The translations under genes were made by a program, and so were the position numbers. Shown here piece after piece: positions 57,020-62,639 of a stretch of DNA of 64,000 bases (position 1 is the stretch's first letter; each line of letters begins with the position of its first letter). This stretch comes from Dictyostelium discoideum (lineage: Eukaryota): assembly GCA_000004695.1 (NCBI GenBank), contig CM000151.3:1856001-1920000 (forward strand), written 5' to 3'. The notes below the pieces were generated by a model. It had not been told where the DNA came from and did not search any database. It worked only from the letters and a program-made list of their open reading frames with translations.

Positions 57020-57149
57020 CCACTTTTTTTTTAATATAAATTTGCAAATCATTTTTTATTCACTTAAAATTTTTTTTTTTTTTTTTTTTTTATTTTTTTT
57101 ATTTTTTTAATTTTTTTTAATTGGATAAAAAATTAAAAAATATTAGTAA

Positions 57150-57832
57150 ATTATTTTCTAATAATTAATTTTGATTTGAATTCTAATGGGCATAATGTTT
57201 TTGTTAAATAACCATTTTCATCATTTAATTGGGTGGTGGTTCTTTCAAATTTAAATGTTTTATATAATTTAGTTGATACCAAAAACATTATTGAATCAGC
57301 GACATTGGCACCAGGACATTGACGTAAACCAGATGAAAAAGCGCATTGACCAATATTTGATTCATCTTTTGATAAAAAGCGATCAGGATTGAAGATGTTA
57401 GGTTCACTGCTTTCAATATTACTTCTATTACATCCATATAAATTTGGAATTACTTGAGTATTTTTTGGAATAAATATATCATCAATAACAATATCATCAG
57501 TACATATATGTGGTAATGCAAATGGTGCTGCTATATATATATATATTGATTTTTTGAAAATATTTTCAGTAATTATTTCAATAAATATATTATGTATAAT
57601 AAATTATAATAATGTATAATAAATATTTACGTGGTGAAATTCTTAAAGTTTCTTTAATAAATGAATTTAAATATGGGAATTGTAATTTATCCTTATGTAA
57701 TGGATGGTTTGGTGTGTTTATTTCAAAAAATAATTTCTCTTGAATATTTGGATAATTTGTTAAATATAATAACAACCAATCCATAGTTGTACTTGTTGTA
57801 ACTTTAAAAAAAAAATTAGAATAGTCAATTTT

Positions 57833-57879
<47 letters not shown>

Positions 57880-58379
57880 AAAATATAATATTATATTTAC
57901 CTGTAACAATAATATTAAAACTTAAATATGAAGATCAGTTATTTTAATTAAATTTGATGTATCCTTTCGAATTTCACTAATGAAATATTCTAAAAAACAT
58001 TTTGGTTCACTAATATTTAATAAAAAAAAATAAAATAAAATTTAGTTTTTTATTTAAATATATACTAAATGTTAAATATATATACATACATTCCATCATC
58101 ATCATCATCAATAATATTTTTTAAAATATTATCAATTAATGGTTGAAAGAAATTTAAACAATTATTATACTCTTTTTCAATTTCTTTATAATTATTAAAT
58201 GGTTTTAAAATTGGGATAAAATCTGCTGGTTGTTTTGCTAAATATTCAAATAATTTATTATAGCTTTGGATAAATGAATAAAATTATTTTGATAATAAAT
58301 TATCATCATATTCAAATGATACACCAAATAGAAATCTATATAAAATATTTAATAAAATTCTTTTAAAAATTGGACCCAT

Positions 58380-58400
<21 letters not shown>
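57150..58400 (-). pseudogene. 5'-truncated, mutated tandem copy (copy A) of the adjacent cytochrome P450 gene.
   Basis: It retains the last four exons at 95% identity or better to copy B. These include the haem-binding exon (FSSGLRQCPGANVADS) and the K-helix exon (ETLRISP). The exon homologous to DMGPIFKRILL.. carries G-to-T, creating TAA (..DDNLLSK* versus KEFYSF in copy B). The I-helix exon has a 1-nt indel plus an in-frame TAA (ITDLHI*). Sequence upstream of the DMGPIF exon jumps directly into the intergenic repeat found 5' of copy B, so the N-terminal exons are absent. Confidence 0.6.
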
Positions 58401-58429
<29 letters not shown>

Positions 58430-58531
58430 AAACCTTAAGTATTGTAAATAAAATCATGATTATATTTTGACTAATTGGTTTCACCTATTTTAAAAGATGA
58501 TTAAATCAAAATAAAATAAACACTTTCACTG

Positions 58532-58575
<44 letters not shown>

Positions 58576-58884
58576 ATATCTATTTTTAAAATTAACATTT
58601 TTGTTAACCACTTAAAATTAATAACTATTTTTTCAATATTGTTGGATCTAATATATTTGTTATAATATAATCTATACTTACATTTATTATAACATAATGA
58701 GTTTTTATTTTTATCTTAAAAAGGCTTAAATATTAAAACAAATTCTTTTGAACAAAAATACAACTTGTTTTAAAGATACATTAACATGCATTTGGTGTAT
58801 AAAAAAAATTATAAATTATAATCCAAACATAAAAACAAAAGAGATTATATTCTTTGTGTTGGGAAAAAAAAAAAGATACCCACA

Positions 58885-58926
<42 letters not shown>

Positions 58927-59941
58927 AAAAAACATTAATTATTTGAAATATAAAAAAAACACCACAACCTGTAGTGTTTGGTGTGGAAAAAATAAAAATA
59001 GAAAAAATAAAATCAATTTAAAAATTAAAAATAAACACTTTTGTTTAAATAAAATGATGATATAATATCAATGATGAAAAATAATTACCAAATGTAACTA
59101 GACTTCTCTTAAATATTACATCAGCTGATATTCCTTCAAACACCATGGTGTTTTACAATATAGCTTTTGGAAATGGGTTCAATTCCACCAGGTAATTCAA
59201 TTAAACAATAAAGTTATTATCATTAATAGCGGTACAATTACAATCAGTGGTTAATTTGGTACAGCAAAAAGATATGCCACTCGCAAAGATTCCAGTTTTC
59301 ATTTACTATGCGGATAGTAAGACTCCTTTCGTCCCCACCCTTACAGATACAACCGATTCATATTCATTCTTTAATCCTGCAACTATTTGATTACAGCACT
59401 TCCAACTGGTTAGGGTCATGAGGTTGAATCAAACATCAGTAATTCTAAAAACCTACACTGCTCCATCTTTTATCACCGGTGAAGAAACATGTAATGATGT
59501 ACCAAGTCTTTCAGTAGACACATATGTCATTGTTAATACTGAAGAAAATAGTCCAAATACAGGTGAACCAGTTATTGTTATGTTTCCATTCAATTCTACT
59601 CTACATTGAAATTATTGCCATTTCAACAACTCCAATAGGATCAATTACATTACTGATAGCGTGCTTAATTTTAAATTTCAAATAACCTCATCCAAATAAT
59701 GAAATAGAGTATCTGTGTGAACCCGATTTATTTCGGATTATTATTATTATTATTATTATTTTTTTTTTTTGGATATCCGACACATCATTTTATCTTAGAT
59801 ATAACTTTAATAGATAATTTAAAAAAATATAAAATATCTATCTGGGGGCAAATATAGATAATTTAAAACCCTTTTATTTTAATTGTATTTTTAGCAATTT
59901 TTTTTTTTTTTTTTTTTTTTTTTAAATAAAATATTAGTAAA

Positions 59942-60619
59942 TTATTTTCTAATAATTAATTTTGATTTGAATTCAAATGGGGATAATGATCTTGTAAAAT
60001 GACCATTTTCATCATTTAATTGAGTAGTGGTTCTCTCAAATTTAAATGTTTTATATAATTTAGTTGATACCAAAAACATTATTGAATCAGCGACATTGGC
60101 ACCAGGACATTGACGTGAACCAAATGAAAAAGCGCATTGACCAATATTTAATTCATCTTTTGATAAAAAGTGATCAGGATTGAAGACGTTAGATTCACTG
60201 CTTTCAATATTACTTCTATTACATCCATATATGTTTGGAATTACTTGAGTATTTTTTGGAATAAATATATCATCAATAACAATATCATCAGTACATATAT
60301 GTGGTAATGCAAATGGTGCTGCTATATATATATGGATTTTTTAAAAAAATAAAAATTTTCAGTAATTATTTCAAAATGTATAATAAATTATAATAATGTA
60401 TTATAAATATTTACGTGGTGAAATTCTTAAAGTTTCTTTAATAATTGAATTTAAATATGGGAATTGTAATTTATCCTTATGTAATGGATGGTTTGGTGTG
60501 TTTATTTCAAAAAATAATTTCTCTTGAATATTCGGATAATTTGTTAAATATAATAACATCCAATCCATAGTTGTACTTGTTGTAACTTTAAAAAAAAATT
60601 AGAATCATAAATTTTAATT

Positions 60620-60651
<32 letters not shown>

Positions 60652-61960
60652 AAAAAAGAAAAAATAAATATTAGATTTACCTATACCTGCAACAATAATA
60701 TCGAAACATATATATGGAAGATCAGTTATTTTAATTAAATTTGATGTATCCTTTCGAATTTCACTAATGAAATATTCTAAAAAACATTTTGGTTCACTAT
60801 TATTTAATAAAAAAAAAAAAAAAAATAAAATTTAGTATTTTAATTAAACACATACTAGAATTATAACTTATACATACTTTCCATCATCATCATCATCACT
60901 AATATTTTTTAAAATATTATCAATTAATGGTTGAAAGAAATTTAAACAATTATTATACTCTTTTTCAATTTCTTTATAATTATTAAATGGTTTTAAAATT
61001 GGGATAAAATCTGCTGGTTGTTTTGCTAAATATTCAAATAATTTATTATAGCTTTGGATAAATGAATAAAATTCTTTTGATAATAAATTATCATCATATT
61101 CAAATGATACACCAAATAGAAATCTATATAAAATATTTAATAAAATTCTTTTAAAAATTGGACCCATATCCTTTTTTTTTTTTTTTTTGTGAAAAATTAA
61201 ACTAATAATCAATTATATATATATATATTTATTTATTTATTTATTTATTTTTTTCAAAAATAATAAAAACTTACAATATTATTATCTTGATTTATTTTTT
61301 TTAATAAATATTCTTCAGCTTTAAAATATTCATTATAAAATAATTCTTCCATTTGACGAGATTTTGATTTAGTAATTGAACTACTTAAAATATCTTTTAA
61401 TTTTCTCCAATGAGAACCATTACCAAATCTAATTTATATATATTTAATTAATTAATAATTTTTTTTAATACTAAATATTTATTTTTAAAGTTATATACTT
61501 ACATAATACCTTGATATTTTCCCATGTAATAAAAAGATGGTAAATGAAATCTTTGTGAAAAAAAGGTTGGATTGTCACGAAATGATTTTTGTAAAAAATT
61601 GATATCATTAATTACAATTGTATCAATTGAACCCATTTTCAATGAAAATACTTTTCCGTATTTATCTGATAATTGTTTGAATGATAAGTGAGGATATTTT
61701 AAACTTAATTTGTAAAGGCTACCAATAATAGGTAATATTAATGGACCACTTGGAAATTTACATTTTAATTTATTTTCTCCAACTAATAATGATGAAGGTA
61801 CTGCTCTATTAAAAAACTTTTTAAATTAAAAATTTTATTAATATTATTTTTTATTTAAAAATTTTATTAATATTATATTATATTATATTAATGCTTACTT
61901 TTATATTTATTAAATATATATATATAAATAATCCTAAAATAATTCCTAATATCATTTTTT
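59942..61960 (-). CDS. Cytochrome P450 monooxygenase (copy B, apparently intact; about 7 exons on the minus strand; boundaries approximate).
   Basis: Exons read (5' to 3' on the minus strand): MILGIILGLFIYIYLINIK (membrane anchor); AVPSSLLVGENKLKCKFPSGPLILPIIGSLYKLSLKYPHLSFKQLSDKYGKVFSLKMGSIDTIVIND; FGNGSHWRKLKDILSS; DMGPIFKRILL...FIPILKPFNNYKEIEKEY; NEPKCFLEYFISEIRKDTSNLIKITDLPYICFDIIVAGI; VTTSTTMDWMLLYLTNYPNIQEKLFFEINT...IKETLRISP (ExxR); PAPFALPHICTDDIVIDDIFIPKNTQVIPN...FNPDHFLSKDELNIGQCAFSFGSRQCPGANVADSIMF...KLIIRK* (haem Cys loop). Introns have GTAAGT/GTATGT/GTAAAT donors. Confidence 0.6.
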
Positions 61961-62011
61961 AATATTAATTAAATTAAGTTTTAAAAATTTAATTATTAAA
62001 ATTTTATTAGT

Positions 62012-62064
<53 letters not shown>

Positions 62065-62163
62065 AAACCTTCAGTATTGTAAATAAAATCATTATTATAT
62101 TTTGACTAATTGGTTTTACCTATTTTAAAAGATGATTAAATCAAAATAAAATACACACTTTCC

Positions 62164-62215
<52 letters not shown>

Positions 62216-62639
62216 TGTTAAATTTAACATTTTTGCCACTTCAAATAATTATTTTTTGAATATAAATATTAATATATTTGATTGATTATAACATCTATAC
62301 TTACATTTATTATCACATAATCATTATTTGAGTTTTTATTTTTATCTTAAAATATTATAACCTTTTAAGATAAAATTTCTTTACAACCAATATCATCATT
62401 ACAAAAAAACAACTTGTTTTAAAAGATATATTTAAATAAATGTTTAGTGTATTAAAAACTATAGGCCAAATAAAAAAAGGTTATATTTTTAAAACTGTAA
62501 GCCAAACATGAAAAAAAAAAAAAAAAATAATAATAAAAATAAAAATAAATCTATTTTTAAGTTCAAAAAAAAAAAAATAAAAAAAAAAATTTCTTTTTGT
62601 GTTAGATGAAAAAAAAGAAAAAAAAAAAAGGGAAAAATA

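Follow-up and report, generated by a model that had tools for sequence, protein, structure and literature searches.

How does a cytochrome P450 gene come to consist of its last four exons joined directly to a block of promoter-side sequence, in tandem with a complete copy of the same gene? The question is raised by a locus on chromosome 2 of Dictyostelium discoideum AX4, the DdTPS3 terpene-synthase/P450 cluster, which lies in a stretch of 64,000 nt (GenBank assembly GCA_000004695.1, contig CM000151.3, positions 1,856,001 to 1,920,000), hereafter the window, whose own positions are used as coordinates. The complete gene, copy B, is CYP515A1, and the shortened one, copy A, which stands nearer to the terpene synthase gene TPS3, is the published pseudogene CYP515A2P. 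An original prediction, made from the letters of the sequence, had described the two as a tandem duplication of which one copy is decaying. The pair itself is already named and known; what is new here is the anatomy of the deletion that shortened copy A, the existence of relatives that keep both copies, and an asymmetry of change in exon 7. We consider it very probable that the pair arose by an old duplication and was subject to gene conversion, before a deletion bounded by A-tracts disabled copy A and left CYP515A1 as the sole survivor.

Copy B (CYP515A1, DDB_G0272704) occupies 59942..61955 on the minus strand and is intact, with seven exons in open frame and canonical GT..AG ends at all the introns: exons 1-4 are found at 61955-61899, 61816-61503, 61428-61275 and 61170-60878, and exons 5-7 at 60796-60681, 60585-60415 and 60321-59942, stop codon included. 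The 494-aa protein that it encodes agrees in every residue with the D. discoideum AX4 entry UniProt Q86A22/XP_001134618.1, annotated as ‘Probable cytochrome P450 515A1’, and aligns to positions 1-447 of the 462 of the Pfam p450 model (PF00067, E=1e-87). The signature motifs of P450s are AGxxTT in the I-helix, ExxR in the K-helix and FxxGxRxCxG, with the cysteine ligand, in the heme loop; in copy B they read AGIVTT, ETLR and FSFGSRQCPG, respectively. Copy A (CYP515A2P, DDB_G0272959), as aligned to copy B, spans 57151..58382 on the same strand and comprises exons 4-7 and introns 4-6, with exon 4 beginning at 58382 and the stop codon at 57153-57151. It is, in fact, a 3' fragment, the conceptual translation of which aligns to positions 140-443 of the same Pfam model (E=3.9e-58).

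The relationship between the two copies is apparent from the comparison of the region with itself. Self-BLAST of positions 55000-64000 gives two repeats, both in direct orientation: 57137-58400 matches 59928-61188 (93.4% over 1278 columns, E=0) and 58384-58721 matches 62019-62352 (86.8%, E=3e-103), the identity between 57137-58383 and 59928-61171 ranging from 93 to 99%. In a gap-tolerant global alignment 57135-58383 is collinear with 59926-61171 at an offset of 2788-2791, which, together with the self-BLAST, bears out the tandem P450 pair, its coordinates and its ~2.8-kb period as originally predicted. The alignment then jumps, pairing 58384-58574 with 62019-62209 (96.3%), and similarity fades by ~58860/62500. 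Copy A has no counterpart of positions 61172-62018 of copy B, which amount to 847 bp and include the 5' untranslated region (UTR), exons 1-3 and most of intron 3. The 5'-flank block kept upstream of copy A (58426..58860, minus strand) is homologous to 62063-~62500 and is 96% identical to it over the first ~190 nt, then ~80-90% with indels. The promoter-side block of copy B is its 5' flank (62019..62500, minus strand), which matches 58384-~58860; the duplicated unit takes in this flank, as had been proposed, and the strings quoted for that proposal are present in both blocks, at 58425/62062 and 58673/62305.

Copy A had also been said to keep only the 3' four exons, and these are exactly exons 4-7 of the seven-exon model of copy B. 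The description of its exon 4 as truncated needs correction: the exon is complete with its AG acceptor, and the break is found in the poly-A tract with which intron 3 ends. The two lesions reported in copy A were both recovered and, together with the other changes, were polarised against nine outgroup sequences. The nonsense mutation is in exon 4 (58284..58286, minus strand), where GAA, the codon for E208 of CYP515A1, has become TAA at 58286; since the site carries G in 9/9 outgroup sequences, the change is derived in copy A. Downstream of the junction, the first ATG is in frame and corresponds to M177; as read from the sequence, it would open a 31-codon open reading frame (ORF) before this TAA. 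The frameshift belongs to a damaged 3' end of exon 5 (57895..57931, minus strand), in which one C is missing between 57931 and 57930 (copy B 60717), 6 nt corresponding to copy B 60678-60683 are lost at the donor, and four changes are specific to copy A, namely the replacements C303S, D305N and A309T and, in the exon 5 donor, a G>T where copy B has the first base of its V312 codon. Jointly these lesions disrupt the I-helix motif AGIVTT, the region being broken by the frameshift and the 6-nt loss; ETLR and a heme loop of the form FSSGLRQCPG are kept. Overall, copy A differs from CYP515A1 by 23 non-synonymous changes and the premature stop over ~318 alignable codons, and exonic differences between the two copies number 30. 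It has the features of a non-processed pseudogene: introns 4-6 and ~480 nt of 5' flank are kept, it stands in tandem with its parent and it carries disabling lesions. Furthermore, its A-tract sits at the 5' junction and not at the 3' end, and thus is no mark of retroposition. On the sequence evidence, copy A is a decaying non-processed pseudogene.

The point at which the two blocks of copy A meet can be read to the base. The deletion junction is a merged A42 tract of the coding strand (58384..58425, minus strand), by which the AG acceptor of exon 4 is placed straight after the 5'-flank block. On the promoter side of copy B the sequence is ...GGTTTTTAT(A)47GTTACT..., the A47 tract lying ~60 nt upstream of the ATG (T-run 62016-62062 on the plus strand), and at the boundary of its intron 3 with exon 4 it is ...TTCAC(A)17GGATATGGGTCC...; copy A reads ...GGTTTTTAT(A)42GGATATGGGTCC... 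at its junction. From these sequences it follows that both breakpoints lie inside directly repeated poly-A tracts. Deletions between short direct repeats or homopolymer tracts occur via replication slippage or single-strand annealing. The case described here resembles them in that the breakpoints fall within repeated A-runs and one merged run is left; it differs in that the merged tract, 42 nt long, is not simply as long as one or the other parental tract (17 and 47 nt), and the lengths differ from strain to strain.

The region around the P450 pair is extremely rich in A+T and is filled with long homopolymers whose lengths differ between assemblies, and one might suspect an artefact, in which a full-length second copy was collapsed during assembly and low-complexity sequence was misread at the stop and the frameshift. 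The genome of a second strain, D. discoideum ACTFIT (L003; GCA_054883475.1, 3.6-Mb contig), assembled independently, speaks to the contrary. Over 14.9 kb its identity to the window is 99.08%, with mismatches at 24 positions, and it has in common with AX4 the junction, both lesions (stop and frameshift) and the spacer between the two copies; along 62700-56600 the two differ only by homopolymer lengths, one single-base deletion and 7 single-nucleotide polymorphisms (SNPs), and the junction A-tract is 13 nt shorter in ACTFIT. Moreover, the stop results from a G>T substitution, and the site of the frameshift is CCATATAT, which is no A-run. The structure of copy A is thus not an artefact of assembly or sequencing, given that an independent genome has the same junction and lesions; assembly collapse and errors in A-runs, which had been named as what would overturn the original prediction, carry a probability that is close to negligible.

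A different possibility is that copy A was born truncated, by a partial duplication of exons 4-7 to which the 5'-flank block was joined then or by a separate event, and the window alone cannot tell such an origin from a later deletion. The decision comes from related genomes. D. discoideum ACTFIW (L001) has two P450 copies of 492 and 482 aa, followed by an ependymin-like gene and TPS3; D. discoideum ACTFIR (L004) has two copies of 492 aa each, followed by the same genes; and D. cf. discoideum ACTFIY (L002) has copies of 500 and 504 aa, followed by two ependymin-like genes and TPS3. In these three genomes there are two full-length tandem P450 genes and then TPS3, in the same gene order as in the window, and the second copy, placed between copy 1 and TPS3, agrees with copy A in position and in orientation. 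In D. citrinum (L006) a copy of 490 aa is found with an ependymin-like gene and a terpene synthase (TPS) gene, the second copy lying beyond the latter, and in D. cf. discoideum ACTFIZ (L005) a first copy of 493 aa is followed by a second one with exons 1-4 only, then by unrelated genes. The intact second copies of ACTFIW, ACTFIY and ACTFIR and the second copy of ACTFIZ, which retains the 5' part, carry A-runs of 14-37 nt located 54-112 nt upstream of the ATG, and in the same four copies an A-rich run ends at AG followed by GATATGG, so that both A-tracts are found at the breakpoint positions of AX4. The spacer and the 5'-flank block above copy A are collinear with the spacer above the intact second copies, and the junction is exactly where two pre-existing A-tracts occur in these copies. 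Relatives with a full-length second copy and both tracts argue for a deletion that followed an old, shared duplication, and an origin of copy A in truncated form is very unlikely. The original prediction had offered unequal crossing-over or a deletion after duplication: the deletion after duplication is favoured, with three genomes that keep a full-length second copy and its bounding A-tracts, and unequal sister-chromatid exchange is still among the candidate mechanisms of that deletion.

In ACTFIZ the second P450, at 11695-12805 of the sequence examined, ends after exon 4 and is followed by Pro_isomerase and Abhydrolase genes, while the TPS3 orthologue is on another contig; this could mean that the same paralogue was shortened independently and from its other end, or else it could be due to a rearrangement or an assembly break. 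The flanking genes of the related genomes are ~93% identical to the window, which indicates sister lineages rather than the same population. In and around TPS3 (53060-56700), ACTFIW and ACTFIR, both labelled D. discoideum, are ~93% identical to AX4, and ACTFIT is ~99%. With a divergence of ~6-7% in the flanking genes, ACTFIW and ACTFIR are probably cryptic species, and the label D. discoideum appears to cover deeply divergent lineages.

If the duplication is old and shared, it has to be reconciled with the close similarity of the copies within each genome. In a neighbour-joining tree of the region from exon 4 to the stop codon, copies A and B of AX4 come together with 99.5% bootstrap support and the four copies of ACTFIW and ACTFIR with 96%, and in a tree of the 5' region the two copies of ACTFIZ come together with 94%. 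That paralogues group by genome, and that the synonymous divergence (dS) of A versus B is only 0.034 (0.055-0.14 versus other lineages), is also what would be expected if each lineage had duplicated the gene independently, the similarity within genomes reflecting young duplications and not conversion, and copy A being recent and quickly disabled. The introns suggest otherwise. Between A and B they diverge by 15.5% in an alignment of 11 sequences by MAFFT, compared with 3.1% for the exons, and by 7.9%, plus 34 unaligned nt, when the pairwise alignment is optimised, which is still above the exons (p=0.002); by either figure the paralogues are about as divergent in their introns as the lineages are from each other. 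The bootstrap support for copy B as the nearest neighbour of copy A is 95% in exons and 93% at third positions and falls to 17% in introns, where the nearest neighbour of copy A is another sequence. Four genomes also have the same tandem layout and the same unit boundary, with similarity ending 0-14 nt past the stop codon. Finally, the inter-copy spacer is homologous across lineages (window 59923-59624 corresponds to 12096-12464 of L002, and window 58835-58384 to 12241-12614 of L001), which argues for one old duplication. Independent duplications are therefore improbable, if less so than a truncated birth, and the grouping of exons by genome points to gene conversion between the members of an old pair, the sequence comparisons suggesting that it acted mainly on the exons and the proximal promoter.

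The pair had been interpreted in terms of birth-and-death evolution. A tandem pair with one decaying member agrees with this interpretation, which is, however, incomplete, as exons that cluster by genome indicate concerted evolution too. Tandem P450 genes accompanied by a non-processed, intron-retaining pseudogene are familiar from the human CYP21A2/CYP21A1P pair (RCCX module) and from CYP2D6/CYP2D7P/CYP2D8P. In the human CYP21A and CYP2D pairs a high identity is maintained by gene conversion or unequal crossing-over, and the pseudogenes carry stop and frameshift lesions. The human pseudogenes are essentially full length, whereas CYP515A2P is without its 5' half, and, unlike in the human pairs, the active gene shows no lesions transferred to it from the pseudogene; moreover, organism and pathway are different, the present pair belonging to a terpenoid cluster of a social amoeba.

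The history that we favour would run as follows. An old tandem duplication of a ~2.6-kb unit, made up of ~0.5 kb of 5' flank and the seven-exon P450, would have produced two head-to-tail CYP515A genes upstream of TPS3. Relatives within the D. discoideum complex still have both intact and, before the death of copy A, gene conversion may have kept their coding parts similar. In the lineage of AX4 and ACTFIT, the TPS3-proximal copy would then have lost 847 bp in a single deletion. Its endpoints are in poly(dA) tracts that are directly repeated, the first situated ~60 nt upstream of the ATG and the second where intron 3 ends, and the promoter-side block came to abut the exon 4 acceptor; the likely cause is an event between the tracts, be it replication slippage, unequal sister-chromatid exchange or single-strand annealing. 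The CYP515A2P remnant, with its stop, its frameshift and its damaged I-helix, would now be drifting, and CYP515A1 remains the sole intact P450 beside TPS3.

Some points weigh against this history or narrow it. The mechanism of the deletion is deduced solely from the sequence of the junction, and slippage, single-strand annealing, microhomology-mediated joining and unequal exchange would all leave an identical scar. The probable status of the sister lineages as cryptic species makes the timing of the events only relative. The contrast between exons and introns depends on the alignment, and a conversion restricted to exons is suggestive at most. Lastly, the distribution of changes in exon 7 is not the one expected from a simple decay of copy A. 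In this exon (59942-60321 in CYP515A1) derived changes number 11 in the intact gene and 2 in the pseudogene (binomial p=0.022), while exons 4-6 have 3 and 7, respectively, a distribution that is heterogeneous with that of exon 7 (Fisher p=0.013).

The changes of CYP515A1 in exon 7 include S435F and L437S in the heme loop, by which FSSGLRQCPG has become FSFGSRQCPG, and five replacements at residues 476-484, which may, on the model of CYP2 enzymes, fall in substrate-recognition site 6; the three alignments to CYP2B4 end at residue 463. Adaptation may lie behind the asymmetry, or a constraint on CYP515A1 that has been relaxed, or else some peculiarity of the conversion history. As a speculation that we regard as unlikely, AX4-type strains and their cryptic sisters may tailor the TPS3 terpene differently, with one diverged P450 in the former and two conserved ones in the latter; if true, this would be a natural polymorphism, both of presence/absence and of function, in amoebal volatile chemistry. 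Of the changes derived in copy A, 8 (the stop among them) are non-synonymous and 1 is synonymous, the frameshift coming in addition. The ratio of non-synonymous to synonymous divergence (dN/dS) is 0.91 for A versus B, compared with 0.24-0.81 between lineages and 0.26-0.56 for paralogue pairs within the other genomes, and the SNPs between AX4 and ACTFIT are 5 in copy A and its flank versus 0 in copy B and its flank (Fisher p=0.01). The ratio and the excess of SNPs in copy A together indicate relaxed constraint.

As for the surroundings of the pair, the gene directly downstream of copy A is terpene synthase 3 (DdTPS3, DDB_G0272706; 55544..56632, minus strand), a single exon that matches exactly TPS3_DICDI (Q86II4). 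Given the exact match of copy B to CYP515A1, and with terpene synthase 3 as the downstream neighbour of copy A, the latter is CYP515A2P. Members of a P450 subfamily share, by the nomenclature, >55% amino acid identity. Copies A and B both exceed this threshold relative to CYP515A1. Chen et al. (2019, eLife 8:e44352, PMC6524965) list CYP515A1 (DDB_G0272704) as a full-length gene and give the status of pseudogene to CYP515A2P (DDB_G0272959), a name found in their supplementary file 2. In the passages of that paper that were examined, DdTPS3 is directly adjoined by the partial CYP515A2_ps, with the intact CYP beyond it, in tail-to-head arrangement. The same passages call the TPS3-CYP cluster ‘putative’ and give no biochemistry for it, and they describe neither the anatomy of the pseudogene (the 847-bp A-tract deletion, the lesions and the retained 5' flank) nor genomes with two copies. 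The adjacency of TPS and CYP genes is found in the window, and the gene order is common to ACTFIW, ACTFIY, ACTFIT, ACTFIR and D. citrinum. It was reasonable to call the gene a P450 of secondary metabolism, as the pair adjoins terpene synthase 3 in this published putative TPS-CYP cluster; an action of CYP515A1 on the product of TPS3 is likewise putative. The published distance between DdTPS3's start codon and the intact CYP is 3148 bp, compared with 3253 bp in ACTFIT and 3309 bp in the window, where TPS3 start to CYP515A1 stop codon measures 3309 nt and TPS3 start to copy A stop codon 518 nt; this spread is probably due, in part or in full, to the lengths of homopolymers. On the other side of the pair lies DDB_G0272929 (62796-63311), a small ISG12/Ifi-6-16-like gene with an exact protein match.

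Other changes are found at the TPS3 locus. An Ependymin_amoebozoa gene is located between the second P450 and TPS3 in ACTFIW, ACTFIR and ACTFIY, is present also in D. citrinum, and is absent from AX4 and ACTFIT, where ~1.17 kb is gone at a junction rich in A/T homopolymers (~57049-57052; compare positions 14795-15965 of L001 and 10233-11396 of L004). This loss is a second tract-associated deletion at the locus. The stretch between the 3' end of copy B and the 5'-flank block of copy A, 1.07 kb long, contains a coding-like insert (59085..59696, plus strand), interrupted by 4 in-frame stops, which corresponds to the decayed C-terminal ~150 aa of an SdrD-B-repeat (colossin-like) protein. The conceptual translation of the spacer had no match in a Pfam scan or in a word-indexed protein search; HMMER with a stop-free 72-aa query retrieved P0041 (DDB_G0272915) and P0042, and BLASTP aligned the insert with residues 538-686 of P0042, a protein with SdrD_B domains (65% over 156 aa, E=4e-54). 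An ependymin-like remnant had been considered for 58960-59700 and was rejected, as unfiltered tblastx and blastn gave only homopolymer noise and filtered searches nothing. In AX4 the insert is annotated as a 91-aa hypothetical protein, DDB_G0272915 (Q559E0), a gene model that is probably spurious and overlies a pseudogene. The insert is shared by AX4 and ACTFIT and absent from ACTFIW, ACTFIY, ACTFIR, ACTFIZ and D. citrinum. A scan of the window for tRNA genes found none, and hence no signature of a tRNA-targeted retroelement. Only tentatively, and with the odds against it, may the death of CYP515A2 be seen as one of three changes of the TPS3 cluster in the AX4 lineage, with the loss of the ependymin gene and the gain of the colossin-like fragment.

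Partial gene duplicates occur also elsewhere in the window. At 46815-47682 (minus strand) there is an inverted ~0.9-kb copy, 90-91% identical to 11368-12296 (plus strand), of the 3' end of a 1007-aa ORF (9232-12255) situated 35 kb away; it contains no ORF of at least 80 aa and is probably another gene-fragment pseudogene, and the parent ORF looks, by eye, like a molybdenum cofactor sulfurase. A third partial duplicate, at 29676-30096, is a direct copy, 93% identical to 26054-26485, of the 3' end of a 1061-aa ORF (26060-29245, minus strand), lies just upstream of it and carries a 110-aa ORF (29773-30105).

The practical value of these observations is small, and they are relevant mainly to work on the putative DdTPS3-CYP515A1 cluster, for which the laboratory strain offers one working P450 where its close relatives have two. 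Those who use the annotation of the locus may take into account that the pseudogene retains the promoter-side block fused to exon 4, and that what is annotated between the copies as a 91-aa model seems to be the decayed fragment of a gene. More generally, the locus provides a clean example of homopolymer-tract deletion in an extremely A+T-rich genome.

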